Source: Dickeya dadantii NCPPB 898
GTDB taxonomy: Bacteria > Pseudomonadota > Gammaproteobacteria > Enterobacterales > Enterobacteriaceae
Assembly (NCBI RefSeq): GCF_000406145.1
Contig: NZ_CM001976.1
Span: 837,260-869,259 of the forward strand
Direction: 5' to 3'
Length of the DNA stretch: 32,000 nucleotides
Shown here one piece after another: positions 566-24,399 of this stretch. A model generated the notes under the pieces. The model was not told the DNA's origin, made no database searches, and worked only from the letters and a program-made list of their open reading frames with translations. Numbering within the stretch: position 1 is the first letter of the stretch; each line of letters opens with the position of its first letter. The position numbers were made by a program, and so were the translations under genes.

Positions 566-1330
566 ATGAGCCAGACAACGCCACAAAGCAATAATCCGGT
601 TGATATCCCGGATGTTCTGAAAAAAATGACTGACACTTACCTGAAGAAGCGAGAAGCACACCTCGCTAACGCCAGTGAACTGGATAACATCACGACGGCG
701 ATGATGCGAGCCAACGCGCAGCAGGCCGCTACCAAAGCAGAAAATCAGCTTTCTGATACCGAATGGCGCACCCGTTTTCTTAAAGCGCGTGGGGAAATGA
801 CGGAGGAACTGAAGGCCCAGCAGTTAAAGCGTCTGGCACAGCGTGAACTGGCGCACGAGTATGATGGGTTGCTGGCGCAGTTGGAAATCGACCAGCTCCG
901 GCAGCAGGCAACGTGCCATGCATCGGCCAAAGCGTGCTGTCATGCACATGCCAGCGCGCTGCGTGATTACGCCGAGTGGGAATTAAGCCAGGCGTTAGAC
1001 CGTATTAGTACAGCGCTGATTCGGGCTATCACGTTAAAGCGGCACATGCTGAGTATCACCACGTCTGAATTTACCGAAGGACTTTCCTATCAAAAACCCG
1101 ATAAGGTGGTCATGGAACAGGTGGTCAACTGCCTGATAGCCAAGTCGAATAACTATCGCTTTGAAATGGACAACGAGCCAGTCTTGTCCGTGCTGGGGCT
1201 TGATTCACCTTCGTTGCCACATGCAGATTTTCCCCCCGTGGCAAATCCGATCGGCCGAATGAATTTTTTCCGCGACTTAAAAGAAAAAGAGGCTGCGTTA
1301 ACAACGCGCGGGCGCAATATGGTGGATTGA
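566..1330 (+). CDS. Hypothetical protein with a helical Q/A/L/E-rich N-terminal half, in the late-gene position of the satellite (possibly Sid/Psu-like, unverified)
   Basis: A 254-aa ORF with an ATG start, followed by a clean rho-independent terminator. It lies downstream of the TGT-N12-ACA motif. I recognise no catalytic motif. Confidence 0.6.
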   Translation: MSQTTPQSNNPVDIPDVLKKMTDTYLKKREAHLANASELDNITTAMMRANAQQAATKAENQLSDTEWRTRFLKARGEMTEELKAQQLKRLAQRELAHEYDGLLAQLEIDQLRQQATCHASAKACCHAHASALRDYAEWELSQALDRISTALIRAITLKRHMLSITTSEFTEGLSYQKPDKVVMEQVVNCLIAKSNNYRFEMDNEPVLSVLGLDSPSLPHADFPPVANPIGRMNFFRDLKEKEAALTTRGRNMVD

Positions 1331-1377
1331 ATTAATTAGCCGAATTATCATTTCATTAATTTTAATATCAGCATATC

Positions 1378-1403
1378 GCCCGCCATCGCGCGGGCTTTTT
1401 TTT
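1378..1403 (+). terminator. Rho-independent terminator
   Basis: Stem GCCCGC (1378-1383) pairs with GCGGGC (1390-1395), followed by a T8 run at 1396-1403. Confidence 0.65.
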
Positions 1404-1560
1404 GAGGTTTTTCTCTGGCTAGCGATTTTTTGATCGTGCATGTGTACAGTGCATGAATTTGCATGTGGAACTTACCTCTCAATTTGCCCTGTCGCGCCAG
1501 TGCTGGTGTGGCCTGAGCTTCTCCATGCAACTGCATGAAAACCGCTACATGAAGCGGGTA

Positions 1561-1576
1561 GGCGTGGCGGGGGCAC
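1561..1576. other. cos-like motif (P2/186/P4 cohesive-end type)
   Basis: GGCGTGGCGGGGGCAC. The first 12 nt equal my recollection of the phage 186 cos end (GGCGTGGCGGGGAAAGCAT; P2/P4 is GGCGAGGCGGGGAAAGCAC). The AAA is missing here. Its position between the late gene and the hotspot/int fits P4 prophage order. Confidence 0.4.
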
Positions 1577-1604
1577 AATTGCGCGCTACCCTCCATGATT
1601 ATTT

Positions 1605-4046
1605 TTAACCCCGAGAATTATCGATAGCGCGTTTGACATTTTCAAAAGAAGGATCACCCATTTTTAGGGCTTCGTTCATGTCAAAATAGTTAGGTTTGTT
1701 TATGATTTTATTCCAAGTAGTGGATAAATAAATTTTAAAAGCATTGGCACGATTGTATCGATCTTCAATGTTAAATGATTCACATGATGTACGCATGCTA
1801 TTAACTATTTCAGGGTTAAATATAGGTGTATCGAAGAGCATTGCGTCAAGATAAGCGAAATCACTAATCCAACGTTTTAGATGATATTGTCCTATTGATG
1901 TTGTTCTAAATTTAGTTGGCATATCACCAATTAAGCCTGTTTCATCTTCTTCAAATGTGAAGCGTTGAGAGGTTTCAATGAGTTTTTTGTTTGTTGATTT
2001 TCTTAATGCATTTTCTGTTTGCTTAGGTATGAAACCTAAATTTTGCATTTCTTCAATTATTTTTCTTGTCTCGCAGAATCCATCTCGATCCTGTATTTCA
2101 CTTTTTTCAGATAAAAAAGATACGATCAATGGCACTAAAAAATGTTCTGACTCATCAGCAATAGAAATATCAAACATGTTCATCGCTAGAGAGGTATTGG
2201 GGTCGAAATGTGAAAAATCTCCTAACAATGCCTGTTTTGAGAATTCGTGTACTGGTATTTGATATCGTCCTTCCTTCTCATATGTGTGAATTATTTTTTC
2301 TGCTTCTACATTGGGGCTTCCAATAAATCCAGTAATGAAGCTTAACGCTTGCCGTACATTACCTCCTGTTATGTTTTCGATGAACTCACCAAGTGCTTTG
2401 TTTTTTCTTAACGAATCAAGAAGTACTTTTATAAATATTGAAAGATTATCTATATGTATTCTGACGAATTCAGCTTGTTCTAAAGGTATTTTACCTTCAG
2501 ACATTTCTAGAGCGAATTGAAGACGTTTATCAAGAACTTGGTCTATTCTTGGTGGGGATATAGTAAATACCTTGTGTGGATATGCAGTTAATGCACCAGA
2601 GGATTTTGATTTAAAAAAAGTTTGCGGCCGAACAGATATAAACACTAATGAATTCCATTCTTTTGCTAACTCTTGAGAGATGACGAATGCTCTTTGCTGG
2701 GTGTCAAAGTCACGTTGATCTGCATTATCTAAACAGATAATGATCTGTCTTTTATTTTGTTTTGATATATGACCTATTGAATTTTTTAGATGTTCATCCT
2801 TGTTGTTGATTTTGTTTTCGAGCATTTCAGTTTGTTTTTCTTCATATTTCTCTCTGTTTTTTTCTCGTAATCCTCCCCATATACCCGTTGAGAATCTCTG
2901 AATTTCTCTTGAATATACACCTTTGACAAATTTAATTTCTGTAATGTCAGTTTTATATTTTTCTAATAACTGGTTTTCAATCTCGTTGAGAATGAATATT
3001 TTAAGATTTTCAGCTAAAGTTGCGTTTGCCCCTAAATCAATATATAAATATATTGCTTCATTGAATTCTTTATATGCACTTGAATAAATCAGGTTTTTTA
3101 CGAAGGATGTTTTACCAACGCCAACGTCGCCTATCAAAACAATGGGGCGTTTTGATAACGCTTCAGCCATTATGCTTGGATCAAGTCCCTGTTCTTTACG
3201 ATCTGGTTTTACTGATGTGATTTGAGGTGATGATTCGCTATCGCTAAATAAAGCTGCATACCGTGCTTGCAGCATTTCTTTACTTAATAATGCATACTTA
3301 GAAAGTGCACCACTTTCGCAATAACACTTTTGATAGAACACATCTTCAATCTCTTTACTTTCAAGTACATCTTGGATTATTAATTCGGATATTTGACGAA
3401 GAGAGGTTTGTAAGTCGCTTGCATATCTAACTTTTGGATATGTGGCTAGATACGATGATAATTTATTCGGAATTCCTCTTGTATCAGATGTGAGATATTT
3501 CATTAATTTCTGTTCTTTTATCCCATAATATGAAATCATATTCCATACGAGAGTAAAATTAATCAGCATGCTTTCTAAACTTTCAAAGACTAAGGCTTTT
3601 CCTTCTAGGGGGGAACAACCATTTTGATTGCTTGCAATGAATGAAATATACTGATGTCCGTTGGTAGCTATAGCAATTGGAGTGCCTCTGGATGAACAAT
3701 AATTTTGAACCTGCCGTATTGCATCGCCTAAGTCTTCATTTGATTTTAATAAGGTTGAAATGTCTATTGTGTTTTTTGTTGACAGTCCAGCAGGTATTTC
3801 AAATGCCCTGCCTTCTCTCTTTGCCTCAACAATAACCTGCCTCGGATTTCCTAATTCATAATCTGTAAATGTTTTTTCCTCATAGCTTTCTACTTCAACT
3901 TGATCCTCTGGCCATGCGAGTACATTGGTTATTATCTTATTTATAATATGGTGCCTCGTTTGAGCTTCATTTCTAATTTTATCACTATCATTATAGACAG
4001 CGACCAGTTCTTTCAATGCACTCTCACATTCAGCCATATTATTCAT
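1605..4046 (-). CDS. PD-(D/E)xK (HsdR-N/Mrr-like) nuclease domain fused to a P-loop NTPase; candidate single-gene antiphage protein
   Basis: An 813-aa ORF with AGGA 7 nt upstream of the ATG. The N-terminus reads NEAQTRHHI...DYELG...VIVEAKREG...ATNGHQY, an HsdR N-terminal-like nuclease pattern. The middle has Walker A LIGDVGVGKTSF and Walker B-like IIICLDNADQ. It is AT-rich (a sampled line is about 33% GC) compared with its neighbours. Confidence 0.85.
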   Translation of the reverse strand: MNNMAECESALKELVAVYNDSDKIRNEAQTRHHIINKIITNVLAWPEDQVEVESYEEKTFTDYELGNPRQVIVEAKREGRAFEIPAGLSTKNTIDISTLLKSNEDLGDAIRQVQNYCSSRGTPIAIATNGHQYISFIASNQNGCSPLEGKALVFESLESMLINFTLVWNMISYYGIKEQKLMKYLTSDTRGIPNKLSSYLATYPKVRYASDLQTSLRQISELIIQDVLESKEIEDVFYQKCYCESGALSKYALLSKEMLQARYAALFSDSESSPQITSVKPDRKEQGLDPSIMAEALSKRPIVLIGDVGVGKTSFVKNLIYSSAYKEFNEAIYLYIDLGANATLAENLKIFILNEIENQLLEKYKTDITEIKFVKGVYSREIQRFSTGIWGGLREKNREKYEEKQTEMLENKINNKDEHLKNSIGHISKQNKRQIIICLDNADQRDFDTQQRAFVISQELAKEWNSLVFISVRPQTFFKSKSSGALTAYPHKVFTISPPRIDQVLDKRLQFALEMSEGKIPLEQAEFVRIHIDNLSIFIKVLLDSLRKNKALGEFIENITGGNVRQALSFITGFIGSPNVEAEKIIHTYEKEGRYQIPVHEFSKQALLGDFSHFDPNTSLAMNMFDISIADESEHFLVPLIVSFLSEKSEIQDRDGFCETRKIIEEMQNLGFIPKQTENALRKSTNKKLIETSQRFTFEEDETGLIGDMPTKFRTTSIGQYHLKRWISDFAYLDAMLFDTPIFNPEIVNSMRTSCESFNIEDRYNRANAFKIYLSTTWNKIINKPNYFDMNEALKMGDPSFENVKRAIDNSRG

Positions 4047-4071
4047 TTTTAAATCCTATGTTTATGAGAAA

Positions 4072-5271
4072 TCATTTATTTTGGCGATTATCAACAAAAA
4101 ATCCCCACCATTCCATCAGTTCTATACGCTGTTCAAAGTAAGTAGAGCGGTTATAAGCTCGTCTAACCTCATTCTTATCACAATGCGCTAACGCCGCTTC
4201 AATCACATCAGGATTAAAACCGGTTTCATTCATGGCGGTGCTGGCTATTGAGCGTAAACCATGAGCAACCAGTTTTCCACCGTAGCCGATGCGTTTTAGT
4301 GCTGCGTTGGCGGTCTGGCTGTTCATCGGCTTTTTAGGATCGTTACGGCTGGGGAAAACATACTCCCGGTTGCCGCTTATAGGGCGCATGATGTCGAGCA
4401 GTTCCAGCGCCTGTTCGCTGAGCGGCACAATATGATCGCGCTTGGCTTTCATTCTTTCAGCCGGAATGCTCCACGTTTTTTTCTCGATATCGATCTCAGC
4501 CCATGCTGTGGCGGAGGCTTCAGCCGGGCGGATAAGTGTCAATAATTGCCATTCCAGCAAGCAGCGGGTAGGAATGGAGAGGTTAGACATCGCAATGGTG
4601 CGCATCAGCGCGGGTAGCTCTTCTGGCCGAATGGTCGGCATATGCTGTTTTTTGGGGCGTTCAAAGGCCATACCAATGCCGGAGGCGGGGTTAGCATCAA
4701 TCAGCCCGGTGTTAACCGCGTAAACCATAATTTCGTTGATGCGTTGTACTAACCGCCTGACGGTTTCCAGTGCGCCACGGGCTTTAATCGGCTCCAGCGC
4801 CTGTATCAGTGTGCGGGCTTTGATTTGTTGCACGGGGATATTTTCAATCGCCGGGAGCACGTCTTTTTCCAGTGACCGCCAAATGTCTTTGGCGTGATCC
4901 GCACTGACTTTGGTCTGCTTCAACGTGAACCAATTACGTGCCACATTGATGAAGATGCTTTCTACCGCTATTTGCGCTTCTTCGACTTCCTTAGCCACTT
5001 TTTCCTGTGGGTCTATTCCTTTGGCTAACAAGGACAGTTTTTCGTCTCTCATGGCGCGGGCATCGGCTAATGACAATGCCGGGTAAGCGCCAAAACCAAT
5101 CATGGTACGTTGGCCTGTGGTTGGTTTCTGGTAACGGAACCGCCACAGTTTTTTCCCGGTGATTTTGACTAAGAGAAATAACCCGTTGCCGTCATGCAGC
5201 GTCAGGTCTTTGTCTGCCGCTTTGGCTTTTTGCACTTCGGTATGGGTGAGGGGGCGGGTTGTCCGTGCCAT
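4072..5271 (-). CDS. int: P4-type (CP4-57/IntA-like) tyrosine integrase
   Basis: The N-terminus MARTTRPLTHTEVQKAKAADKDLTLHDGNGLFLLVKITGKKLWRFRYQKP is typical of P4-family integrases. The C-terminal catalytic region reads HGLRS...LAHCDKNEVRRAYNRS. The start was chosen at ATG 5271 (AAGGA upstream), not at the ORF-track start 5400. It lies next to the tmRNA 3' repeat on the same strand. Confidence 0.9.
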   Translation of the reverse strand: MARTTRPLTHTEVQKAKAADKDLTLHDGNGLFLLVKITGKKLWRFRYQKPTTGQRTMIGFGAYPALSLADARAMRDEKLSLLAKGIDPQEKVAKEVEEAQIAVESIFINVARNWFTLKQTKVSADHAKDIWRSLEKDVLPAIENIPVQQIKARTLIQALEPIKARGALETVRRLVQRINEIMVYAVNTGLIDANPASGIGMAFERPKKQHMPTIRPEELPALMRTIAMSNLSIPTRCLLEWQLLTLIRPAEASATAWAEIDIEKKTWSIPAERMKAKRDHIVPLSEQALELLDIMRPISGNREYVFPSRNDPKKPMNSQTANAALKRIGYGGKLVAHGLRSIASTAMNETGFNPDVIEAALAHCDKNEVRRAYNRSTYFEQRIELMEWWGFFVDNRQNK

Positions 5272-5385
5272 TGGGAGATATCCTTGATGATTGGTATACG
5301 CCTTTTGGTATATATCGTACCGTATACCAATACGTATACCAATAATCAGCGGATTTAGCCGGATATCGTCGGACAATGACGGAAA

Positions 5386-5420
5386 CAAAAAAGCCCGCAA
5401 ACCTAGGTGGGATGCGGGCT
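5386..5420 (-). terminator. Rho-independent terminator downstream of the tmRNA 3' fragment
   Basis: An 8-bp stem: AGCCCGCA (5392-5399) pairs with TGCGGGCT (5413-5420). On the minus strand it is followed by a T-run (plus-strand AAAAAA, 5386-5391). Confidence 0.6.
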
Positions 5421-5455
5421 TTAAGGACTTTCCCGGACGTATCCGGATATGTAAG

Positions 5456-5488
5456 TGGTGGAGCTGGCGGGAGTTGAATCCGCGTCCG
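5456..5488 (-). other. ssrA (tmRNA) 3'-terminal 33-nt fragment; attachment-site repeat between two islands
   Basis: The reverse complement reads CGGACGCGGATTCAACTCCCGCCAGCTCCACCA. That is one mismatch from my recollection of the E. coli ssrA 3' end (CGGACGCGGGTTCAACTCCCGCCAGCTCCACCA). The tmRNA body is absent to the right. Confidence 0.8.
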
Positions 5489-5494
5489 CATTTG

Positions 5495-5510
5495 ATTCAA
5501 CTAGTTGAAT
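5495..5510. repeat. Perfect 16-bp palindrome ATTCAACTAGTTGAAT at the ICE end
   Basis: ATTCAACT (5495-5502) plus AGTTGAAT (5503-5510). The same octamer AGTTGAAT also occurs inside the tmRNA T-arm copy at 5472-5479. Confidence 0.7.
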
Positions 5511-5541
5511 TATAAGATTTATTTTTATTAAGGTTCGAGCT

Positions 5542-5561
5542 CGTGCATTTTACGTGCATTT
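5542..5561 (+). repeat. Tandem CGTGCATTT repeats, candidate arm-type integrase sites
   Basis: CGTGCATTT occurs at 5542-5550 and 5553-5561, an 11-bp periodicity. The repeats lie between the att core and the 3' end of the ICE integrase gene. Confidence 0.3.
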
Positions 5562-5629
5562 CCCGGTTTTGCCGGTGCTGTCGGGACGCATTGGGTGAGG
5601 ATGAAAAACGAGGCTGGGGGACGCGATGT

Positions 5630-6805
5630 TCATTGTATGTTGAATTCGCGCCCCGCATTCCCGTCATAATCGGACAGGTAAGAACCGTAGTGACGAAAGA
5701 GCATTTCGGGTCCTTTGTGGCCCATTTGTGCGGCTAGCCAGAACAGGTTGGCACCTCGGCTGATGTGCCGGGTGGCAAAGGTGTGGCGGGTCTGATAGGG
5801 ATTGCGGTAGCGTATTCCGGCTTTTTGGAGCGTGGGAACCCAGGCTTTCTTCCTGATGGCATCTGCGCCTGCCCACGGTGCGCCGGTTTTCGGATCGTCA
5901 AACACGAATTTGCTACGCATAAGCGTGAACGGTTTTTGCTCCTCAAGAGCGGTTAACGCTTCCGTGTCCAGATCGACACTACGGCGGCCAGCCTTGGTTT
6001 TGGTTTCTTTGATAACGCCAACAACGCGGGCAGATTTGACGTTAACGCGTTTTCCGGTGAAATCAATATCTTCCCAGCGTAGCGCACAGAGTTCAGAGCT
6101 GCGCATACCGGTATGAAAGGCAAATCGAAACAGGTTTTCCCACTGCTTGTTGCCTGCGGCGATATAGATGGCCGTTGCTTCTGCTGGGGAAAACGGGTCG
6201 ACCTCATAATGACGGCCGCTATTCAACGGCCTGCTTGTCTGGTATCTGGCCGCGCTGACCAATTTTACCGGGTTAACCTCGATCAGCCCATCTGTGACGG
6301 CTTCATCAAGCGCACTACGCAGAAATGAGAGGCGATTCCTGGTGGTTTTCAGGGTTGTTTTTTGCTGACTGATCCAGTTTTTGAGGATTGCTGGGGTCAG
6401 GCTTGTTACTGGCAGCTTATGCAGTGCAGACAGCACTGAACGGCACTTTTTATACCCCACAAGGGTGGACGGTGAAAGATTCCGGTTTTTACAGATCGTC
6501 AGATACTCATCCAGATAGTCAATAACAGCCCGGCGACGGGTGATGGAGCCAAAAATCTTTAGCTTTCTGGAGTGAGGGAAATAATCGATGTAAGCAAAGC
6601 TCTCAGCCGCGATTTTATTCTGGATCTCGCCCAGTAGTCGTTCGGCATATTTGATGGTTTTCGTGTTCACGTCCATCAATGACAAGGGCTCCCGGCACAG
6701 CAGCCCTTTATAGGTAAAGGTCATCACCAGTGTGGAGCCGGTTTTGTGCTGGCGAAGGGTTATACCTCTGGGAAGTGATAGGGATCTCTGTTCTTTCTGG
6801 CCCAT
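5630..6805 (-). CDS. int: Tyrosine integrase, lambda-like, with an N-terminal arm-binding-type domain
   Basis: A 391-aa ORF with GGAGG 7 nt upstream of the ATG. The C-terminal part contains HTGMRSSEL...YQTRHTFAT...MGHKGPEMLFRHYGSY (R..H-R-Y catalytic pattern). It is transcribed toward the att junction, as lambda int is. Confidence 0.9.
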   Translation of the reverse strand: MGQKEQRSLSLPRGITLRQHKTGSTLVMTFTYKGLLCREPLSLMDVNTKTIKYAERLLGEIQNKIAAESFAYIDYFPHSRKLKIFGSITRRRAVIDYLDEYLTICKNRNLSPSTLVGYKKCRSVLSALHKLPVTSLTPAILKNWISQQKTTLKTTRNRLSFLRSALDEAVTDGLIEVNPVKLVSAARYQTSRPLNSGRHYEVDPFSPAEATAIYIAAGNKQWENLFRFAFHTGMRSSELCALRWEDIDFTGKRVNVKSARVVGVIKETKTKAGRRSVDLDTEALTALEEQKPFTLMRSKFVFDDPKTGAPWAGADAIRKKAWVPTLQKAGIRYRNPYQTRHTFATRHISRGANLFWLAAQMGHKGPEMLFRHYGSYLSDYDGNAGREFNIQ

Positions 6806-6969
6806 TTGGCAACCTCCGTTAAGTCTATCCAGCGTTCTTTCACTCCATCAACTTTTAATACCTGGACGCCTTCAATCCATACTCCCCTTTGTATCCGTTT
6901 GTTAATGGCATCCAGCGATTCACCGGACTCCCGGCAGTAGGCTGAAATGGGTATGCAATCCAGGTTCAT
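6760..6969 (-). CDS. xis: Excisionase-like small DNA-binding protein (putative Xis)
   Basis: A 69-aa reading from ATG 6969 (GGAGG 6 nt upstream): MNLDCIPISAYCRESGESLDAINKRIQRGVWIEG... Its 3' end overlaps the int start by 46 nt, as in lambda xis-int. The longer ORF-track start at 7104 lacks a Shine-Dalgarno (SD) site. Confidence 0.55.
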   Translation of the reverse strand: MNLDCIPISAYCRESGESLDAINKRIQRGVWIEGVQVLKVDGVKERWIDLTEVAKWARKNRDPYHFPEV

Positions 6970-7362
6970 CGATCGCCTCCGGTTGGTGCATTTGCGCTTG
7001 CCTGACGAGTCATACGTTTGGGCCCGCGGCAAGTCTTCACGGCTGCCATTCGTCATCCTTTCCTGCTCGTCTTCGAATAAGGCGACCGCAGAGGGGATCA
7101 TCATGCAAAAAAGCGCAGTTGAACAAAACCGGTCAGGGCGTATACCAGCGTAAGGAGGATAGGTAACGGTGAAGACGGAATGTCAGGGGGAGAATGAAGG
7201 CGGCCTTGCTGTCTCGCCCATCGTACCACGGCGTTCTCGCCGTCAAGGGCGGCGCGCGCGTTGCGCGCTGGCGGCAAAGCCGTCTGCGACCCTGTGACGG
7301 CGTGCGCTGCGCCGTGCTGCGTCGGCTCCGGGCAATGTCGCCCGAGCAACCGGAGTATTGTC

Positions 7363-7872
7363 ATGTCACAACCCACGTTCTCTTTGTTGACCGCGCCACT
7401 GCTGGTGCGGGATACACACGGGCTTTATCTGCCGGCGACGACTGAGCAAATCTTGCTGGCGGCACGTCAGGCCATAGACTGCAAAATGCCTTTAGGCACG
7501 GAGTTCACGTCAGCGAGCCAGACCCAGGCGTACCTGTGCGCCAAGCTGGCCGGGTTTGAGCGCGAAGTGTTCGCGGTGCTGTTTCTCACGACACGACACC
7601 GCCTCATTGAGTATGCCGAACTGTTTTACGGCACCCTTGCTACCACTGCGGTGTACCCGCGCGAAATCGTCAGAAAAGCGCTGAGCTGCAATGCCGCGGC
7701 GGTGATCCTGGCGCACAATCACCCGAGTGGAAATACGGAGCCGAGTCAGGCCGACCTGATGCTGACGCGCCGGGTCAGTGCGGCGCTGGCACTGGTGGAC
7801 GTGCGGGTTCTGGATCACATCATTGTGGGCGGTAATGACACGTTGTCATTTGCTGAACGGGCATTACTGTGA
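7363..7872 (+). CDS. radC: RadC-like JAB-domain protein
   Basis: Contains the JAMM motif AHNHPSG..EPSQAD and the C-terminus LDHIIVG. The start is at ATG 7363 with GGAG upstream, and a strong terminator follows. Confidence 0.85.
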   Translation: MSQPTFSLLTAPLLVRDTHGLYLPATTEQILLAARQAIDCKMPLGTEFTSASQTQAYLCAKLAGFEREVFAVLFLTTRHRLIEYAELFYGTLATTAVYPREIVRKALSCNAAAVILAHNHPSGNTEPSQADLMLTRRVSAALALVDVRVLDHIIVGGNDTLSFAERALL

Positions 7873-7876
7873 CCGT

Positions 7877-7898
7877 GGGGGCGTGAGCCCCCTTTTTT
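7877..7898 (+). terminator. Rho-independent terminator after radC
   Basis: GGGGGC (7877-7882), loop GTGA, GCCCCC (7887-7892), then T6 (7893-7898). Confidence 0.75.
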
Positions 7899-8467
7899 GC
7901 GGTGGCCTGCCCCTGACTGGATACCCCGTCATTCGGCGCAGCGCTGTGACTCGCCATGATGTGCTGCATCAGGTTGTGTGGCCGTGCATCGTCCCCGACA
8001 CTGGTGATCGACTGCCGTAAGGTCGTGAAGGCGGCGTGGCCGATATGCCGGCAGCCTGGCTACGACGTTGCGTTGCGTGATGACTTCTGCCGTTGCCCGG
8101 TGAGGTAAGGTGCTGTCGCCCGTCATGGGAACAGCGTGAGGCTGACACTGGCGTGGCGAATCGGTAACGCCGTTGTGTCGGTCAGGTGCGTTAGTCATGG
8201 TGCCTTTCGGGAGCGGTAGGGCCATACGTCCTTGTGTCGTTGTGAATCCTGACGGGTGGCACGGCTACGCCTCGGGCCTGATGGCCGCAACCAGCAAGCA
8301 CCAGCAATGTCCCCGGCGCCAGCGCCTTCCTCGCGCAGCAAATTCCTGGCGTTTGCTGGTCCTTCACGGTGTTACGGCCGCAGGTGCGGCCAGCCCGGTC
8401 CCCGTCTGTCGGCTCACAACAAGGACGCGATGGCGCGACCTTGATGAACCCGAAAGGAGAAATGATC

Positions 8468-8780
8468 ATGGCTAACATCGGCACCTTCACCGCCCAGACA
8501 AACGGTTTTACCGGCACGGTTCACACCCTGACCCTTAACGTCAAGGTGAAGTTTGTTCCCAATGACCGAAGCGGCGACAGCGTCCCACGATTACCGCATC
8601 CAGACGGCAGGCGGTTACGACATCGGCGCAGCGTGGAAAAAAATCAGCCAGGCCGAACGGCCTTACCTGTCGGTCACGCTCGATGACCCGTCCCTTCCGG
8701 CGACCATTTACGCCCGCCTGATCGAGGACGATGACGGCACCTATAACCTGATTTGGTCGCGCAGCAAAGCGACGGTTTAA
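8468..8780 (+). pseudogene. DUF736-family gene with a frameshift (or a sequencing error)
   Basis: The N-terminal half [37 protein letters not shown] is in one frame (AAGGAG upstream). The C-terminal half [60 protein letters not shown] is in another. The switch is near 8579-8585. Joined together they have typical DUF736 length and pattern. Confidence 0.7.
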
Positions 8781-9148: not shown

Positions 9149-9784
9149 TTATTTTTCCATAAATAATCCATACGGATTTAGATAGCCTACATAGGTCGGT
9201 TTTTTTTTGTAATGAGTTGTATTGCAAGACCACCTTAAGGCGGAATAACCAGCCATAATTCGATGTCCAACCCATCTTTCATCGATCAATTTAAAACCGC
9301 TTGGTTTATTCAAAAGTAATAAACTGCCCATGAATTTTATCCATTCATGATTTTTTATTAACCTGTTTCCATAAGCATGGAAAGACCTACCGCTATTAAA
9401 AATGTAAAAGCTTAAATTCCAATGGGATGCTAAGTCTCTTAGTGGTGTGCTATCAATTATACCTCTATCAACATTACCAAAATCGATTAATGGAATGTGA
9501 TGTTCCGAGCCAAAGTCAAAAAGTTGTGAATGGAGTGCTAACTCTTCACCATGTTGTAAATTTGCTATCATATCTAATAAAGTTTGTTCGTTAAGTTGCC
9601 ATATCGGTAGGCTAAAAATATATCTCTCATCAGTAAAGCTTTGAGGTAAATAACGGTACTTACTAAATGTAAGAGAAATGCTACTAGACACGACACTATT
9701 CTTTATCTGGGTTTCTATAAGATTAGTCACCCATAATATTGGATGCCTACTAAAAAATGGATAATTTGTTAGTAATTCGTTCAT
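9149..9784 (-). CDS. Hypothetical protein, partner of the dGTPase; weak archaeo-eukaryotic primase (AEP)/PrimPol-like motif pattern
   Basis: A 211-aa ORF whose ATG lies 5 nt after the dGTPase stop. Motif-like strings are HIPLIDFGNVD, FNSGRSFHAYG and KLIDERW. It is AT-rich like the dGTPase gene. Confidence 0.75.
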   Translation of the reverse strand: MNELLTNYPFFSRHPILWVTNLIETQIKNSVVSSSISLTFSKYRYLPQSFTDERYIFSLPIWQLNEQTLLDMIANLQHGEELALHSQLFDFGSEHHIPLIDFGNVDRGIIDSTPLRDLASHWNLSFYIFNSGRSFHAYGNRLIKNHEWIKFMGSLLLLNKPSGFKLIDERWVGHRIMAGYSALRWSCNTTHYKKKPTYVGYLNPYGLFMEK

Positions 9785-9789
9785 TTTAT

Positions 9790-11298
9790 TTATACCTTTA
9801 TACCTTTAAGCATATGATACATTTCCATTGCAAATTGATCTGTCATGCCGGAAACAAAATCAACTATAAGGTGGACGCGAAGTTTCCATTCGATAGTACT
9901 ATCAATTGACTCTAATCTGTTTTTGATTTTTTCTTCAGAATAACCAGGGTCATTTAATGGCAAATCTAATAAAGATGTTTTATATGCATTGAGATGCTTA
10001 GAAGGAAGCCTGTTGAATAAGCGTCTTTGAATGTCTAAATTGTTTTTTCTGATTTTTTTGTTATCTTTTGTTAATAGGAGTGAAAAATCGTTTTTTGAAA
10101 GTGATAATAATTGTAAGTATTCATCCAATATCCCTTTTATTATAGAAAATCCTGATAACTCCATTCTTTCGGCTTCTTCAGAGGTGAATAAGTATTGAGA
10201 TGTATAATCTTTAAGGATTTTCAATAGATTGTATTCGAAATCTGATTCTGAAATTAATTCTTTATTATATTGTGATTTTATAAGGCTGTCATATTTTTCC
10301 ACAAAGCGAAGAGCAACTTGTTCTACGAGATAATTAGAGAGCTTTGTTTTAAAAGATAAAAAACTACCAATCGGTGAGTTCGGAGTAACAGATAAACTGT
10401 TAATTAATTCTTCGCATATTTTTTCTTGTTTGGGGATGGAATTTTTGAGATCTGAAAGTTTTTTGGTTGTAAATTCTTTGAAGTTTTCAAAAGAAATTAT
10501 TTTTTTCTCTATACCATCTTCAATGTCGCTTATGCAATAAGATATGTCATCTGAAGCCTCCATTAAAAAACCCAGAGGGTGTCTTGAATTAGGTGGCATG
10601 TCAAGGCTTTTCCAAGCTCCTTCTATTATATTCTTTTCGCTGCAGAAGTATCCGATTTTTTTACTAAATGGTTTTTCGGAATTAATGCTTTTAGGACAAA
10701 ATGTATACTTAAGGAAGGCAGCTAGTTGTGTATATGTTAAATTGAGTCCATAATATCCGTCCTCTCCCTGTAAGCGAGTTATAACTCTCAGACCCTGAGG
10801 GTTGCCGTCAAAATTATTTATATCACAAAGTAAATCATCAAATTCTTCATTATTTAATTCTTTATTTATTGATGTTTTAATTGATTTTTTTATTTCGTCA
10901 GATTTACTCCACTTTACTATTGCGGACTCACCAAAGTGACCAAAAGGTGGATTGCCAATATCATGCATTAAACATGCGGTTTCTACAATATTGGAAATTG
11001 TTAGGTTGTTTTTCATCCAGAGGTTTTTTATTGAACTATCGATTCTATCGGCTGCTAATATTTTTTCAAAAATAGAGGCTACTAAATAGCGGCCTATATG
11101 TGAAACTTCGATTGAGTGGGTCAAGCGAGAACGAACAGAAGAATTACTTTCTAATGAGAATACTTGAGCTTTCTGCTGTAATCGTCTAAAAGCTGCAGAA
11201 TATATTAACCTTGCTCGATCACTTTGAGTGGCTGCAAGAATTGATGAGTGATCTGCACTAGACTTTCTATATCTATCCGTTTTAATTAATTTATCCAT
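9790..11298 (-). CDS. dGTP triphosphohydrolase-family HD-domain protein (Dgt-like)
   Basis: A 502-aa ORF containing SDRARLIYSAAFRRLQQKAQVF, RSRLTHSIEVSHIGR and CLMHDIGNPPFGHFGE, the canonical dGTPase-family motifs. GGAG lies upstream of the ATG. Confidence 0.9.
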   Translation of the reverse strand: MDKLIKTDRYRKSSADHSSILAATQSDRARLIYSAAFRRLQQKAQVFSLESNSSVRSRLTHSIEVSHIGRYLVASIFEKILAADRIDSSIKNLWMKNNLTISNIVETACLMHDIGNPPFGHFGESAIVKWSKSDEIKKSIKTSINKELNNEEFDDLLCDINNFDGNPQGLRVITRLQGEDGYYGLNLTYTQLAAFLKYTFCPKSINSEKPFSKKIGYFCSEKNIIEGAWKSLDMPPNSRHPLGFLMEASDDISYCISDIEDGIEKKIISFENFKEFTTKKLSDLKNSIPKQEKICEELINSLSVTPNSPIGSFLSFKTKLSNYLVEQVALRFVEKYDSLIKSQYNKELISESDFEYNLLKILKDYTSQYLFTSEEAERMELSGFSIIKGILDEYLQLLSLSKNDFSLLLTKDNKKIRKNNLDIQRRLFNRLPSKHLNAYKTSLLDLPLNDPGYSEEKIKNRLESIDSTIEWKLRVHLIVDFVSGMTDQFAMEMYHMLKGIKV

Positions 11299-12241: not shown

Positions 12242-13039
12242 ATGACGCCTCATCCCTCCGGGCATTGCCGCCCTATTGCCGCTTACCTTTACGTTTTACA
12301 TCTTGATGGCCCCGCGCTGGCCTGGGAATACCTGCGCCGAAATCCGGATTACCGCTGTGACTGGCTCCACCGCCCGCGTCGGGCCGGTGGAGCCCAACGC
12401 TGGGGCCTACGCCTGTGGGAAGATCCGTCCCTGGATGCGCGTGAGGCGCATCCCGTCTGGTATCCCGACCCTGACAGCGTTGTGCTGCTTTACCCGGATG
12501 CCGACCCACCGCCCGATGCCCCAGTTTTCGCCTTCTGGCACATGCCGGGTCGTCATACGCTGGTGCATGATGGCCGACGTTTACTGCTGTTGACGCGCTG
12601 GCCCGGCGGTTGCCTGCGGCTGGTGTGTGTACCGATGCCGGCTGATGGCATGGCGTATGTCTGTGCCGTCAGGGGCGGTGTGTTGCTGCGTTCCCGTTAC
12701 CGGCCATTAGCGGCCGCGTTGAGTCACGGGGCGGAAAGGCGCAATGCAGTACCGGATAGGATGGTTTGTCCCCGGCCTTCCCCCACCGCATTGCGGGAGT
12801 TACATACCCTGCAGGCGCTGGATGCGTCGCTGGCTGGTGCTTCCTTGCGTGACGTGGCGGCCGGTTTAATGGGCGCGGAGGGCCTTGCTGACGCCTGGCA
12901 CGCGGATAGCGGCCTCCGCTCCCGAGTCCGGCGGCTGGTCTCTCGCGGCAAGCGGCTGATGTGGGGCGGGTATCGCTGTCTTGTTTCCCCGTCCGTGGCT
13001 GGGAAGGGCCGTTCTGTTTCCGGCGCAAAACGGCCCTGA
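12242..13039 (+). CDS. DUF6499/DUF2285-type ICE transfer activator (FseA-like), single fused ORF
   Basis: A 265-aa ORF with AGGAGAA upstream. The N-terminal motif LAWEYLRRNPDYRCDW is the pattern I associate with this family. It sits immediately upstream of the excisionase-HTH and repA, as in Tn4371/ICEMlSym-type cores. Confidence 0.55.
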   Translation: MTPHPSGHCRPIAAYLYVLHLDGPALAWEYLRRNPDYRCDWLHRPRRAGGAQRWGLRLWEDPSLDAREAHPVWYPDPDSVVLLYPDADPPPDAPVFAFWHMPGRHTLVHDGRRLLLLTRWPGGCLRLVCVPMPADGMAYVCAVRGGVLLRSRYRPLAAALSHGAERRNAVPDRMVCPRPSPTALRELHTLQALDASLAGASLRDVAAGLMGAEGLADAWHADSGLRSRVRRLVSRGKRLMWGGYRCLVSPSVAGKGRSVSGAKRP

Positions 13040-13122: not shown

Positions 13123-13419
13123 ATGCGCCCTGTTCCTGTTCGCCCTGATGTTGCTGTTGCGGTTACGCCGCAGCCTGCCCGTTCCCCGCAGCCGCCCCGT
13201 TATCTGACCAACGACGAAGCGGCTGCCTATCTGCGATTATCACCGCGCACGCTGGAAAAGCAGCGGGTCATTGGTGGTGGGCCGCGCTTTCGCAAATTTG
13301 GCCGCCGTGTCATGTATGCGGTATCGGATCTGGATAGCTGGGCTAATCAGCACAGCTTTGAAACCACGTCCGATCCTGACTATGCCGAGTACCACTCGGC
13401 CGACAGCCGTGTACGCTGA
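13123..13419 (+). CDS. Excisionase-family (MerR-type) HTH protein, RdfS-like
   Basis: A 98-aa ORF with GGAGG upstream. Core sequence: YLTNDEAAAYLRLSPRTLEKQRVIGGGPRFRKFGRRVMYAVSDLDSWA. Confidence 0.7.
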   Translation: MRPVPVRPDVAVAVTPQPARSPQPPRYLTNDEAAAYLRLSPRTLEKQRVIGGGPRFRKFGRRVMYAVSDLDSWANQHSFETTSDPDYAEYHSADSRVR

Positions 13420-13430
13420 ATGGCGGCGCG

Positions 13431-14258
13431 TTGGCCGCACGTCTGATGTCCGGTTCGCTCGACCTGTTCCAGGCATTGCCGGGACGCATGGCACCGCGCG
13501 ATGCCCGGGATCTGATGGCGTATCCCTTCTTTTCCCTGTCGAAATCACGCCGCACGGTGCCGATCGAGTATGGCATCGGTACCGTGAGGATCCGGGTGGA
13601 AGGTACTGCCGAACAGGGTATTGCCACCATCTGGGACGCCGACATTCTGATCTGGGCGGCCAGCCAAATCGTCGAAGCCCGCGACGCGGGCATTCCGACG
13701 TCACGCCGGATGCGGGCCACGCCCTACGAGATCCTGACTTTTATCGGTCGTGGCACTTCGCAGCGGGACTATCAGCGGCTGAAAGCTGCCCTCGACCGGC
13801 TGCAGTCCACTACTGTTGCCACCTCGATTCGAGCCGAAAGTGGACGGCGGTTACACCGTTTCTCCTGGCTCAACGAATGGCACGAGCGAACCGATACCCG
13901 GGGCATGTCGCTGGGCATCGAGCTGATCCTGCCGGACTGGTTTTACGCCGGTGTTCTCGATGCGGCGCTGGTCCTGACCATCGATTCGGCTTACTTCCGA
14001 CTGACCGGTGGGATCGAGCGCTGGCTGTATCGTCTGGTGCGCAAACATGGCGGCCGACAGGCTGCTGGGTGGCGGTTCGATTTTCGCCATTTGTACCGCA
14101 AATCCGGCAGCGCAGCCCGGTACAGCGATTTCGCCTGCGATCTGCGCACGCTGGTGGCCCGCCAGTCCCTGCCGGGGTATGTGCTCGGTATCGGGCGTTT
14201 GCCGGGAGGCGGGGAGCTACTCACGTTCCGGCCGGTGTCATCCGCAGCACGGGGATAA
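13431..14258 (+). CDS. repA: Replication initiator protein A (RPA family)
   Basis: Contains DLMAYPFFSLSKSRR...GIATIWDADILIWAASQIVEA...YEILTFIGR..S.RDYQRLKAALDRLQST, which fits the RepA family of these ICEs. The start is uncertain: TTG at 13431 or ATG at 13446. Confidence 0.75.
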   Translation: MAARLMSGSLDLFQALPGRMAPRDARDLMAYPFFSLSKSRRTVPIEYGIGTVRIRVEGTAEQGIATIWDADILIWAASQIVEARDAGIPTSRRMRATPYEILTFIGRGTSQRDYQRLKAALDRLQSTTVATSIRAESGRRLHRFSWLNEWHERTDTRGMSLGIELILPDWFYAGVLDAALVLTIDSAYFRLTGGIERWLYRLVRKHGGRQAAGWRFDFRHLYRKSGSAARYSDFACDLRTLVARQSLPGYVLGIGRLPGGGELLTFRPVSSAARG

Positions 14259-14282
14259 CCTGGGAAAAAACGGTGAAGACGG

Positions 14283-14346
14283 TCGTGCTATCAGGCGCAC
14301 GGGCTATCGTGCTATCGAGCGTACCCCCCTCGTGCTATCAGGCGCA
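14283..14346 (+). repeat. Three iteron-like direct repeats TCGTGCTATC(A/G)(G/A)GCG
   Basis: Copies at 14283-14299, 14307-14321 and 14330-14346, spaced 24 and 23 bp apart. They begin 25 bp after the repA stop, in a segment with no credible ORF. Confidence 0.6.
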
Positions 14347-14568
14347 TCGGCGAGCCCGTATCCCGCTGTTGGCGCGGGTTTGGCATCGCGCTAACGGTTC
14401 TAACATAAAAAAACTAACGAATTGTTGGGGACGGCGATACCGGTGGATAACCGGTAAACGGCACGCCCAGACCGCTGGCAGAAAGCCGTGGTTCAACACC
14501 CTGAGTCCTTGCAGGACGGGCGGCAACATCACCGCAAAAGAGCGCGGATGGCAGGAGAACATACCCCG

Positions 14569-15114
14569 ATGAGCATGACACATCACGTCCGGTGGGGATC
14601 GCCTTCACTGTGGCTGGCGGGCCTGTCGTTATCCGGTCTGGTTTCACTGGCCTGGGCAGCGGTGGGGGACGTTACGCCGTATCTGGTCTACAACCCGACG
14701 GACAGTATTGCCCCAGGCTGGTATCGCCTTCAGCCGCTTCGCCCGCCATTGCCACCGCTGTCTGTCGGCAGCGTGGTACTGGTGTCGCCTCCGGTTGAGG
14801 CCGCACTGCTGGCCGCGCAGCGTGGTTACCTGCCAGCGGGAGTGCCACTGCTTAAACCGATTGGGGCTATGGCACCCCAACAGGTGTGTGTTATCGCCGA
14901 CACGGTGCGTATTAACGGCGTGGTTGTGGCTCGCGTGCTGCGGGCCGACCGGCTGGGGCGGCCGTTATCGGCCTGGCCGGGCTGCCGGCACCTGTATCCA
15001 GGCGAGGTGTTCCTGCTGAGCACCACGAACCCGGCATCGTTTGACAGTCGTTATTTTGGACCGGTACCGATGGCCTCTGTGCGGGGAGCGGCACAACCCC
15101 TGCTGACAAGGTAG
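14569..15114 (+). CDS. traF: Conjugative signal peptidase TraF (S26 family-like)
   Basis: An N-terminal TM segment (LWLAGLSLSGLVSLAWAA) is followed by YNPTDSIAPGWY...GEVFLLSTTNPASFDSRYFGPV. It sits between repA and the relaxase. The start is uncertain: 14569, 14548 or 14488. Confidence 0.7.
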   Translation: MSMTHHVRWGSPSLWLAGLSLSGLVSLAWAAVGDVTPYLVYNPTDSIAPGWYRLQPLRPPLPPLSVGSVVLVSPPVEAALLAAQRGYLPAGVPLLKPIGAMAPQQVCVIADTVRINGVVVARVLRADRLGRPLSAWPGCRHLYPGEVFLLSTTNPASFDSRYFGPVPMASVRGAAQPLLTR

Positions 15115-15115: not shown

Positions 15116-15314
15116 GGCTTACGGCTGAACAGCGCGTCGTGGAATAGACGAAGGGCAGGGCAAGATAAAAGGGGGCGACACGCGGTGACGCCGACATGCC
15201 GTCTGCACACGGGGAAAGGGCGGCACGCATCCGGTGTGCTGGCGTGCTGTGGAACCACTAATTGATTATTAATCATGGCTATTTCCTGTGCTGACAAGTA
15301 GCTGGGAGGAAGTG
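15116..15314 (+). promoter_or_regulatory. traF-relaxase intergenic region, candidate oriT/promoter
   Basis: Bounded by direct repeats TGCTGACAAG(G)TAGC (15101-15115 and 15289-15302). It contains the inverted repeat GCACGC/GCGTGC (15224-15229 / 15242-15247) and the AT palindrome TGATTATTAATCA (15263-15275). Confidence 0.3.
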
Positions 15315-17968: not shown

Positions 17969-19270
17969 CTAGGCGATGTGATTTCTCTGTCTTGTTTTTT
18001 CTTGTATTTCAATGATTTGAAAGCTAAAATTACTATATTTTTCACTGACCAATTGGAGTCTTTTCTCTGTAATGTCTGAGATTTTATTAAAACCCATTTT
18101 TCTAGCTAGATGTTTGACTGGAATTTCACAATCAGATTCCATCAGAATGCATTTTCTTTTCCCTCTGTCAGTTTCATTCAGTTCCGCAACTGCGTGAGCG
18201 GTCGTTCCTGAACCAGCAAAAAAGTCGAGGATAAGTGCATTATCAGATGAGCAAACATCAATTATTTTTTTTATGTAAGAAAGTGGCTTAGGCGTATCAA
18301 ACACCTTCCCGCCGAATAGCTTATTAATTTCATTTGTAGCTCTCTCTGTGTAGAAGTCGGTCTCACTCCAAAGAGAGCGAACTTTCGTTCTTTTTTCCTT
18401 TGCAGCATCGCCAGAGTAGTTTTTGACGTAAATAACCCCATTTTTACTAGCGTAAAGCTGCCAAGCTCTTTCTCTCGCTGTGTCGGCTCCCCAAAGCCAG
18501 CGTCTGTCTATACCTTTTGAATCTACTGGATAGGTGATCTTCCAATTATCAATAGGATCAACGGAAACCTCCCCACTTTCAGGATTATAATAGAGTGGGT
18601 AGAACATATTTGGTCTATCTGATTTTAGGCTAGCTTCACCCTTCTTGCGGAAAAGTCCATCGATGCGATATCCACCAAATTTATCTTGCTTATCGTAGCT
18701 TGTTTCATCAGCCTGACCGCGAAGAAAAGCTTTATCCGATTTCCCATAAATCATCAAATACTCATGGTTAGATGCAAGATTCTTTTTGCTCCCTTTACCA
18801 TTTTTCGATCTGCATACGATTACATTACCAATGAAGTTTTCCTCTCCAAAGATGCAATCCATAAGTATCTTAAGGTAGGCGCATTCATAGTCATCAATAC
18901 TAATAGCTATAACGCCTGAATCCTTTAGTATCTCTCTAGCTGCAACTAGACGAGACAGCATAAACGTCATCCAACTCGAGTGAGTACCAAAATGCCCACT
19001 AGAATCAGACTTTCTAGAATCATTGTATAGAAATTTCGAGCCTGTATTGTACGGGGGATCAATGTAACAAAAGTCCACAATCCCAGGGCTGCGTAACGCA
19101 ATTTCTTTAAGGTATGGTAAGTTGTCGCCAACAAAGAGGGTTGTGTCAGCTTCGCGCCGTTCTTGTACAGCATCACAGACTTCCCTCTCACTAAGAGGCA
19201 GATAATGTTGGGGCTCAAACCCAAGCTCTCTCTCTAACTTGCTGATTTTTATATCCATTATTGATAACAT
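17969..19270 (-). CDS. Beta-class N6-adenine/N4-cytosine DNA methyltransferase
   Basis: A 433-aa ORF. Motif IV (IDPPYNTG) is N-terminal and motif I (LDFFAGSGTTAHA) is C-terminal, the beta-class order. GAGGG lies upstream of the ATG. Confidence 0.85.
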   Translation of the reverse strand: MLSIMDIKISKLERELGFEPQHYLPLSEREVCDAVQERREADTTLFVGDNLPYLKEIALRSPGIVDFCYIDPPYNTGSKFLYNDSRKSDSSGHFGTHSSWMTFMLSRLVAAREILKDSGVIAISIDDYECAYLKILMDCIFGEENFIGNVIVCRSKNGKGSKKNLASNHEYLMIYGKSDKAFLRGQADETSYDKQDKFGGYRIDGLFRKKGEASLKSDRPNMFYPLYYNPESGEVSVDPIDNWKITYPVDSKGIDRRWLWGADTARERAWQLYASKNGVIYVKNYSGDAAKEKRTKVRSLWSETDFYTERATNEINKLFGGKVFDTPKPLSYIKKIIDVCSSDNALILDFFAGSGTTAHAVAELNETDRGKRKCILMESDCEIPVKHLARKMGFNKISDITEKRLQLVSEKYSNFSFQIIEIQEKTRQRNHIA

Positions 19271-24182: not shown

Positions 24183-24399
24183 GTCGTCGCCATCATCACA
24201 AAAATCACTCCCGGCACCCGCTACGCCCGGTTACGCCATGGCGGGTTGCACTGTGCTCACGTTCTCCCCTGTACGCATTGTGACTTTTTGCTCCCTGATT
24301 GAGTCGGGAACGGTCTTTGCACTGGGCTGAGCCCGCACCGATGCTCTCTCGCAGGCGGCATAACCGTTGTGCCGCCTTGAGGGCGAGAAGGGGGCGGCA

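Follow-up and report, generated by a model that had tools for sequence, protein, structure and literature searches.

A nuclease-AAA+ NTPase gene in the int-cos hotspot of a P4-like satellite of Dickeya dadantii, a candidate one-gene defence

P4-like satellites carry, between their integrase gene and their cos site, a dispensable cargo locus whose contents are rapidly swapped, and in published tests six of eight randomly chosen unknown cargo loci from this slot were protective (PMC13586616). Reve is a validated single-gene defence from the same hotspot (de Sousa et al. 2026; PMC13586616; 10.64898/2026.02.27.708500), and proteins that combine a nuclease, a STAND NTPase and repeats had been noted in P4 hotspots earlier (Rousset et al. 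2022; PMC9122126). Lee et al. 2026 catalogues 589 STAND clades with a focus on sensors of at least 400 amino acids (aa), and reports a wide range of phage proteins that are sensed by Avs families whose effector is a nuclease (PMC12803255). Here we describe a gene for an 813-aa protein that is the cargo of the int-cos hotspot of a P4-like satellite in Dickeya dadantii NCPPB 898. It lies in a stretch of 32,000 nucleotides (nt) of contig NZ_CM001976.1 (positions 837,260 to 869,259), which we call the window.

In one chain the gene encodes a restriction-type nuclease whose active site is intact and, fused to it, an AAA+ NTPase of ORC/Cdc6-STAND type with its lid, then a winged helix and a helical domain that is small but conserved. 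It is solitary and horizontally scattered, and it occupies cargo positions in satellites, islands and plasmids, often beside restriction or defence genes. Our preferred interpretation, which we hold tentatively, is that it encodes a self-contained ATP-gated DNA nuclease that the satellite carries as cargo and that would act in defence against phages or plasmids; that the family serves in such defence in one way or another is very probable. The gene and the parts of its product are as follows.

1605..4046, minus strand: the 813-aa nuclease-AAA+ NTPase gene, from the list of open reading frames (ORFs), with an ATG start, a stop codon at 1605-1607, full-length homologs of ~800-830 aa and a match to PHROG 14719 (1.9e-89).
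3567..4046, minus strand: N-terminal HsdR/RecB-type PD-(D/E)xK nuclease domain, aa 1-160 (invariant residues, HSDR_N matches, Foldseek).
3177..3566, minus strand: helical linker, aa 161-290 (conserved C241-Y242-C243; pLDDT in the AlphaFold2 (AF2) model <50 for aa 243-288, low-confidence or disordered).
2547..3176, minus strand: AAA+/STAND-like P-loop core, aa 291-500 (sub-threshold Pfam matches, Foldseek, invariance).
2163..2546, minus strand: AAA+ lid/helical region, aa 501-628 (AF2 secondary structure, conservation, Foldseek span).
1899..2162, minus strand: winged-helix domain, aa 629-716 (three helices and a beta-hairpin in both models; weak Foldseek matches to winged-helix proteins).
1608..1898, minus strand: C-terminal helical bundle, aa 717-813 (conserved G719, Y721, F730, Y732, D734, D739-T-P741, R763 and Y773).

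An earlier note on this DNA, made from its letters alone, had picked out several nuclease and Walker motifs in the protein. All are present: NEAQTR at residues 26-31, DYEL at 62-65, VIVEAKREG at 71-79, TNGHQY at 128-133, the Walker A sequence GDVGVGKTS at 306-314 and the Walker B-like IIICLDNADQ at 435-444. An alignment of 62 members of the family, with identities down to 24%, has E27, R31, E53, D62, Y63, E74, A75, K76, Q112, Y116 and N129 invariant in the nuclease region and G306, G311, K312, D440, N441, D443 and R508 invariant further along; conservation is at least 90% for R473, for G562-N563-x-R565 and for a group of C-terminal positions. Because the key residues are invariant across homologs as divergent as this, the motifs are not chance strings.

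Nucleases of the RecB family and HsdR have the motif order D...ExK...QxxxY. The N-terminal domain has E27, E53, D62 and E74-A-K76 (nt 3819-3863), followed by Q112xxxY116 (nt 3699-3713), and its secondary-structure elements also come in the order known from these nucleases. Among 60 diverse family members, nine match HSDR_N or HSDR_N_2 (best 1.6e-5), the top Foldseek match in BFVD is a protein annotated 'Type I restriction enzyme R protein N-terminal domain' (E 1e-3), and a profile search gave a faint match to the HsdR structure 3h1t. The N-terminus is thus, as the note had proposed, a predicted HsdR-N-type nuclease with its catalytic residues intact. Downstream of it, a C-Y-C motif (aa 241-243; window positions 3318-3326) stands out within the otherwise low-confidence linker, with C241 and Y242 at least 90% conserved family-wide; its role could be to bind metal, to take part in redox chemistry or to act as a regulatory hinge.

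In the NTPase core, Walker A (G306DVGVGKTS) lies at nt 3105-3131 and Walker B (hhhhD440-N-A-D443-Q-R) at nt 2712-2744. A helical insert of ~90 aa separates beta2 from beta3 (aa 339-431) and consists of soluble helices in the AF2 model, and a sensor-1-like strand ends in S-V-R473-P. The NACHT signature motifs 'DGxDE' and 'TSRP' resemble D440xxD443 and S-V-R473-P. No Pfam or NCBIfam model reaches its threshold on the window protein: the scores in bits, against the cutoffs, are 21.6/27 for AAA_22, 18.3/20 for KAP and 13.8/26.7 for NACHT, and AAA_16 is also sub-threshold. The 60 members include Pfam matches to AAA_16 (47 members), AAA_22 (45), ATPase_2 (25), NACHT (23, best 1.4e-8), KAP (12) and ORC-CDC6-like (5), with nSTAND3 or nSTAND5 matched in a few. 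Searches of the PDB by sequence and by profile returned generic P-loop matches only (midasin, small GTPases).

By structure, the nearest relatives are replication initiators. When the full-length AF2 model (pLDDT 75.6, pTM 0.52, a moderate model) was compared with the PDB by Foldseek, the top ten matches were all ORC4, Cdc6 or Orc1 (E 9.5e-5 to 1.9e-3). The top entries 7tjj_D, 1fnn, 5uj7_D (the human ORC motor module) and 2qby align over 460-580 columns with TM-scores of 0.2-0.4 and 10-16% identity. TnsC, AAA+ proteins of the Clp/FtsH type and DnaA assemblies rank below them, and the top 50 contain no Avs, NLR or Apaf-1 entry. The lid has features of the same kind–besides the invariant R508, it carries a Cdc6-like sensor-2 G562-N563-x-R565 (nt 2352-2369; at least 90% conserved), the segment 'VFTISPPRxxxVxxKRLxFA' (in its family form 'hxFxPPRxxxhxxxLxxRL') mirrors box VII of Cdc6/ORC, and 'NITGGNxR' mirrors sensor-2 (GDAR). 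The model therefore suggests an NTPase closest in structure to initiator-type AAA+ proteins of the ORC/Cdc6 group, with NACHT-like sequence features; the resemblance is one of fold, not of orthology. The earlier note had set the protein beside immune layouts with a STAND/NACHT-like NTPase: the P-loop is there and the sequence features bear the label out, but in structure the domain is closest to ORC/Cdc6 and not to Avs or NLR proteins.

The last ~300 aa, in which the note recognised no motif, turn out to consist, on the models, mostly of ATPase lid and winged helix, and so do contain a GGNxR sensor-2 motif; the description holds for the ~100 aa that remain, which have no structural match. A separate model of aa 575-813 (239 aa) has pLDDT 80 and pTM 0.76. 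Compared with the PDB by Foldseek, it has no match at E<0.01; the best is MukF (E 0.013) and other weak matches are to winged-helix proteins. The basic helix of the winged-helix domain, ALR(R/K)xTNKKLIETSQR, is conserved among close relatives. The ~100 aa beyond the winged helix form a helical bundle that is free of repeats (TPR, WD40 or other), and may be all that is left for a 'sensor'.

It is possible, if doubtful, that the protein is a receptor of the Avs/bNACHT type, in which the C-terminal winged helix and bundle would bind a conserved phage protein, releasing an ADP lock so that tetramers or other oligomers form and the N-terminal nuclease degrades DNA indiscriminately (abortive infection). 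The order of effector, NTPase and C-terminal domain is as expected for such a receptor, and the NACHT, AAA_16 and nSTAND matches point the same way, as do the NACHT-like D440xxD443 and S-V-R473-P. There is also precedent in the nuclease-STAND proteins of P4 hotspots (PMC9122126) and in the many phage proteins sensed by nuclease-effector Avs families (PMC12803255). On the other hand, no Avs or bNACHT model in the defence database PADLOC-DB matches any of the 60 members, Foldseek favours ORC/Cdc6 over solved Avs or NLR structures, and the conserved sensor-2 arginine (G-N-x-R565) is a trait of AAA+ and not of STAND proteins. The ~100 aa past the winged helix are repeat-free and short, whereas typical defence STAND sensors have at least 400 aa (PMC12803255). 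Nor do effectors swap: among the 100 representatives of at least 600 aa we found no effector-swapped relative, and all three modules are in all of them except two that look truncated. For the sensor part that the note had expected, the candidate region is ~100 aa at most, far smaller than Avs sensors, in an architecture that is fixed and not modular.

The window covers only the right end of the satellite (int, cos and the psu-like gene), and we read the rest from Dickeya genomes that have the same gene. The satellite features in the window are these.

4072..5271, minus strand: P4-type tyrosine integrase, 399 aa from the MARTTRP... methionine (the mechanical ORF extends to 5400), with Arm-DNA-bind_3, Phage_int_M and Phage_integrase domains.
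5456..5488, minus strand: att copy, the 3'-terminal 33 nt of ssrA (tmRNA), with 32 of 33 bases equal to the E. coli ssrA 3' end.
~1436..1586, plus strand: P4-type cos-proximal region, by local alignment to the P4 cos region.
566..1330, plus strand: Psu-like (polarity suppression) gene, 254 aa, PHROG 6165 (5.9e-55), convergent with the 813-aa gene.

The integrase called in the Dickeya and Pectobacterium loci is likewise 399 aa long. Its TGA stop codon (4074-4072) is followed after 25 nt, on the same strand, by the ATG of the 813-aa gene (4046-4044), with a Shine-Dalgarno sequence AGGA 7 nt 5' of that ATG. GC content drops abruptly at this junction, as the earlier note had described, from 0.49-0.55 (~0.52) in the integrase to 0.31-0.37 (~0.33) in the 813-aa ORF, and the psu-like gene is again at 0.50-0.55. 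The cos core, GGCGTGGCGGGGGCAC, lies at 1561-1576 and its counterpart in P4 is GGCGAGGCGGGGAAAGCAC; published P4 fragments served as the reference for this alignment. A terminator scan found a terminator-like hairpin at 1378-1395, between the psu-like gene and the 813-aa gene. At the ssrA-derived att copy the satellite ends and a neighbouring integrative conjugative element begins. We found no intact tmRNA or tRNA within the window and no ogr/delta gene in its leftmost 565 nt. The Psu-like protein is longer than its counterpart of E. coli P4 type (254 versus 190 aa) and is recognised by PHROG 6165 only; it has no Pfam match and no detectable BLAST similarity to E. coli Psu.

Complete genomes of Dickeya dianthicola encode a near-identical protein, in the same 90%-identity cluster. 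Their satellites have the order int, 813-aa gene, psu-like gene, AlpA, small genes, a 774-aa primase of the P4 alpha type (Zn_Ribbon_Prim/Toprim_3/D5_N/Pox_D5) and a second variable slot. With the primase in these genomes, and the P4-type integrase, cos, Psu-like gene and ssrA att copy in the window, the placement of the gene in the cos-int hotspot of a satellite, as first proposed in the note, is secure.

The second cargo slot, past the primase, differs between the two Dickeya strains: it holds AbiEi/AbiEii in one (L096, 18590-20036) and a 1,223-aa DUF4011/AAA_11 protein followed by KwaB in the other (L097, 17881-22442). The int-proximal 813-aa gene is the same in both strains. In the first of them (D. 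dianthicola CP038499.1, L096), a P2-like prophage (661-8591; Phage_GPA, a CI repressor, a Cox-like protein and an integrase) adjoins the satellite, and an ssrA-like att copy (8559-8591) is all that separates the two. They are likely to be a helper and its satellite, integrated in tandem at one site.

Beyond Dickeya the family is large. A word-indexed search gave 1,098 matches, of which the best 120 are all ~790-865 aa long or fragments and nearly all annotated 'hypothetical'. When the 50%-identity representatives were searched exhaustively, 1,828 clusters matched at E<=1e-3, of which 515 did so at E<=1e-30, and full-length members of ~800 aa occur down to 27% identity. Species-representative genomes, searched with a profile from a 30-sequence alignment, yielded members in Alpha-, Beta-, Gamma- and Deltaproteobacteria, Nitrospirota, Bacteroidota, Actinomycetota, Planctomycetota, Acidobacteriota, Fibrobacterota and Bdellovibrionota. 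Within E. coli a distant search found the gene in 2 of 5,426 complete genomes, and a megablast search with the 813-aa gene gave no match. The family is absent from 50,697 deposited phage genomes and was found on 30 plasmids, of which 14 are conjugative; on a plasmid of Shewanella the homolog stands beside IS30 and a type II restriction-modification system. The spread is patchy, unlike the housekeeping-type distribution that the note had named, together with the lack of a phage phenotype, as grounds for dropping a defence role. Several conjugative IncFIB/IncFII plasmids of Klebsiella pneumoniae carry a distant paralogous branch (for example NZ_CP138703.1, 55651-58155; 834 aa, ~25% identity), which lies near IS110 and an arsenic-resistance operon.

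Recurrence in P4 hotspots, which the note had suggested looking for, is seen in Pectobacterium, Klebsiella and E. coli, where, as in Dickeya, the gene follows a P4-type integrase at ssrA. Pectobacterium atrosepticum SCRI1043 has the order smpB, P4-type int, homolog, Ogr/Delta. In Klebsiella the homolog follows the integrase region past smpB, and some strains have Hachiman (HamA and helicase) and a DEAD helicase just upstream. The RefSeq annotation of E. coli CH4799 reads ssrA, integrase, 'P-loop NTPase family protein' (the homolog), 'phage polarity suppression protein' and an ogr/Delta pseudogene. Even in Congregibacter, a distant gammaproteobacterium, the homolog comes directly after a P4-type integrase, in an island with a MmeI-type enzyme, a SNF2 helicase and cytosine methylase, and AlpA.

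The initiator-like fold could also be read as a sign of a non-immune role: the protein might handle DNA for satellites, islands and plasmids, in their replication, partition, exclusion or addiction, or it might be a sporadic DNA-repair nuclease. AAA+ proteins of ORC/Cdc6 type with a winged helix normally work in the initiation of replication or in choosing targets for transposition, members of the family are found on plasmids and integrative elements, and at some loci the neighbours are housekeeping genes only. We nevertheless consider such a role unlikely. The slot is dispensable and rapidly swapped (PMC13586616), and the satellite has its own alpha-type primase/helicase. The counts for phage and E. 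coli genomes given above tell against it too, the replicons and neighbours differ every time, and an intact restriction-type nuclease is conserved throughout the family.

No partner gene is conserved. When 563 flanking ORFs from 80 species-representative loci were clustered, the commonest cluster occurred at seven loci, which bears out the earlier description of a one-gene system. Among the 137 nearest neighbours there are recombinases (Phage_integrase 6, Resolvase 2, and a transposase) and restriction or defence genes (Mrr_cat 3, type I S and M, type IIG, type IV, PDC-S02 and NA-iREase1, with mad2-like methyltransferases among them); the remaining neighbours are ordinary metabolic genes. In Vibrio parahaemolyticus the homolog is accompanied by CBASS and NERD, in Desulfobulbus by a reverse transcriptase. 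Homologs thus lie near other defence genes as well as in P4 hotspots, as the note had anticipated–for example Hachiman, CBASS, restriction systems of types I, II, IIG and IV, and Mrr.

Such neighbours could mean that the protein is not autonomous and instead serves nearby restriction-modification or BREX/MADS-like methylation systems as an alternative nuclease subunit. Its HsdR-N-type nuclease would suit that role, several nearest neighbours are type I S/M, type IIG or mad2-like methyltransferase genes, and a type II system accompanies the homolog on the Shewanella plasmid. The only PADLOC similarity is to mad8 of MADS (window protein aa 299-464, E 1.7e-5; also in 21 of the 60 members). This match is confined to the P-loop region, however, no methyltransferase or other gene recurs in more than seven of the 80 loci, and in the window, as in the satellites of Dickeya, Pectobacterium and E. 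coli, it is the sole gene between int and cos. We regard this account as very improbable. Membership of MADS itself, an eight-gene operon (10.1101/2023.03.30.534895), was rejected, the mad8 match being limited to the P-loop region and the 813-aa gene being solitary.

The PADLOC comparison used the models of PADLOC-DB v2 (2023) at E<=0.01, which cover Avs1-5, bNACHT, the systems of Gao, Millman, Vassallo and Rousset, and PDC candidates. Run on the window protein and the 60 diverse members, it matched no Avs, bNACHT or Tmn model. No named defence family among these models claims the protein, in line with the note's suspicion that it might be undescribed. We found no exact-protein record for the 813-aa window protein, and no literature on the family by accession, PHROG id or domain names. 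The family appears to be large, unnamed and experimentally untouched, and it may figure without a name among the 589 STAND clades of Lee et al. 2026.

If the gene does encode an ATP-gated defence nuclease, as we prefer to read it, the protein in an uninfected cell would be a nucleotide-bound, autoinhibited monomer. The winged helix and C-terminal module would read a cue from the invader, upon which the protein would assemble into an ATP-dependent oligomer, as for ORC/Cdc6, TnsC and Avs, and the oligomer would gather the N-terminal nuclease domains so that DNA is cut. With modest confidence we prefer as trigger a feature of foreign DNA, which would make the protein a type IV restriction-like or DNA-loaded AAA+ nuclease that needs no partner, and not a sensor of phage protein. 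A DNA trigger is slightly favoured because the closest folds are DNA-loaded AAA+ proteins of initiation and transposition and the sensor-2 arginine is retained; because the C-terminal module is small, non-repetitive and conserved across phyla within an invariable architecture; and because the nuclease is of restriction lineage, where specificity of the modification type would spare the P2-like helper. A phenotype is likely because six of the eight random unknown P4 cargo loci were protective.

Several points weigh against this interpretation. We infer the defence role from context and domain content. The DxxD Walker B, the 'SxRP' sensor 1 and the NACHT/AAA_16 matches fit protein-triggered sensing of the Avs type equally well, and the full-length AF2 model is moderate, so that it gives no reliable interdomain geometry. 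Outside the enterobacteria, ordinary metabolic genes account for about half of the nearest neighbours. Only three of the 80 loci have an adjacent integrase that resembles those in the window, and therefore the P4 slot is one of several homes for the gene. Lastly, a nuclease that is triggered by DNA and has no partner needs to tell self from non-self, and we identified no means of doing so in the protein.

A more specific proposal, which we put forward as rather doubtful, is that the family is a compact class of immune nuclease in which an ORC/Cdc6-like AAA+ and winged helix load or oligomerise directly on some feature of the invader's DNA (modified bases, for instance, or free ends, or intermediates of replication or packaging) before the HsdR-type nuclease fires. 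If true, this would be an origin-recognition-like restriction enzyme with neither a methyltransferase nor a phage-protein sensor, distinct from Avs, from type I-IV restriction and from McrBC, and widespread. Databases call the family 'hypothetical' and PADLOC models miss it. It is large (~1,800 clusters at 50% identity), reaches at least eight phyla, and has members on conjugative plasmids as well as in satellites and islands. Should it prove to protect against phages, the known defences would gain a one-gene system of very small size (2.4 kb), and it would help to explain 'defence-less' P4 satellites. The protein may be an NLR-like design in minimal form, or it may recognise foreign DNA in a new way that needs no modification partner, and the origin of the coupling between switch NTPases and nucleases could become clearer from its hybrid ORC/Cdc6-STAND ATPase.

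The rest of the window, beyond the att copy (5456-32000), belongs to an integrative conjugative element that stands in tandem with the satellite. The genes identified in it are listed here; two further large ORFs, at 13271-14572 and 19337-20959, have no Pfam match.

5630-6805: second integrase.
7261-7872: RadC.
9149-9784, minus strand: 211-aa protein with an AEP-like primase domain (PF24387, 3.2e-39), directly downstream of the dGTPase gene.
9790-11298, minus strand: dGTPase-type defence gene (PADLOC dGTPase 5.2e-70; HD and HD_assoc domains).
12242-13039: RovC-like regulator.
15288-17255: DUF3363 relaxase-like protein.
17969-19270: N6/N4 DNA methylase.
24367-26349: TraG/VirD4 coupling protein.

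The dGTPase gene and the gene for the 211-aa protein make up a second AT-rich block (9149-11298, minus strand; GC ~0.31) inside the conjugative element. The 211-aa protein matches no PADLOC model, and the two genes may be a two-gene variant of dGTPase defence.

Among described systems, Reve resembles the 813-aa gene in several respects. It too is a single gene directly after a P4 integrase, its product shows weak AAA_22 (PF13401) and KAP (PF07693) similarity, and the ATPase motor module of human ORC is its reported top Foldseek match. Reve differs in having 586 aa, a Walker A at ~27-33 and no nuclease domain. We took its sequence from the synthesized fragment in the preprint's Dataset E1 (plasmid pFD425) and rejected identity of the two: BLASTP and phmmer gave nothing significant, and hhalign against the family profile aligned 18 columns around Walker A at a probability of 10.6%. 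Judged by sequence comparison, the 813-aa protein and Reve are not homologous at the family level.

Avs proteins with nuclease effectors, such as SeAvs3 and EcAvs4, likewise combine an N-terminal PD-(D/E)xK nuclease, a P-loop switch NTPase, helical and winged-helix domains and a C-terminal extension in one polypeptide. Both kinds of gene are found in P4 hotspots and defence islands, and the logic of trigger, oligomerisation and nuclease activation is presumably common to them. Unlike Avs, the 813-aa protein has only ~100 aa past the winged helix, without TPR-like repeats, and keeps the sensor-2 arginine; its nuclease is of the HsdR-N/RecB type with QxxxY and not of the Mrr or Cap4 type; its family does not swap effectors; and its ATPase is nearer to ORC/Cdc6 than to any solved STAND structure. 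By the bNACHT criterion, a NACHT match at the Pfam gathering threshold, the window protein falls short and some distant members score better. More generally, the core has features of STAND type (DxxD, SxRP and NACHT matches in 23 of 60 members), yet the window protein stays below the Pfam cutoffs and the sensor-2 arginine is conserved. What links it to KAP proteins and Tmn (Gao_Tmn) is a near-threshold KAP_NTPase match and a long stretch inserted between the two Walker motifs, but here that stretch consists of soluble helices instead of transmembrane ones and a nuclease is fused at the N-terminus.

With HsdR the 813-aa protein shares the motif order D...ExK, QxxxY and invariant catalytic residues, whereas an AAA+ module replaces the SF2 helicase/translocase motor (ResIII and Helicase_C domains are absent from the window protein and the 60 members) and there are no HsdM or HsdS partners. 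ORC, Cdc6 and Orc1 have the same AAA+ base, lid with a sensor-2 arginine, and winged helix. In contrast to them, the 813-aa protein has no catalytic glutamate after the Walker B aspartate (D440-N441-A-D443, with N441 invariant), is fused to an N-terminal nuclease and has a mobile, patchy spread, with nothing that points to a role in replication. Single-protein defences that join a nuclease to an NTPase are already known as a kind, and another such gene is unsurprising to a specialist; an ORC/Cdc6-like design with almost no sensor, however, could conceal a new mode of recognition.

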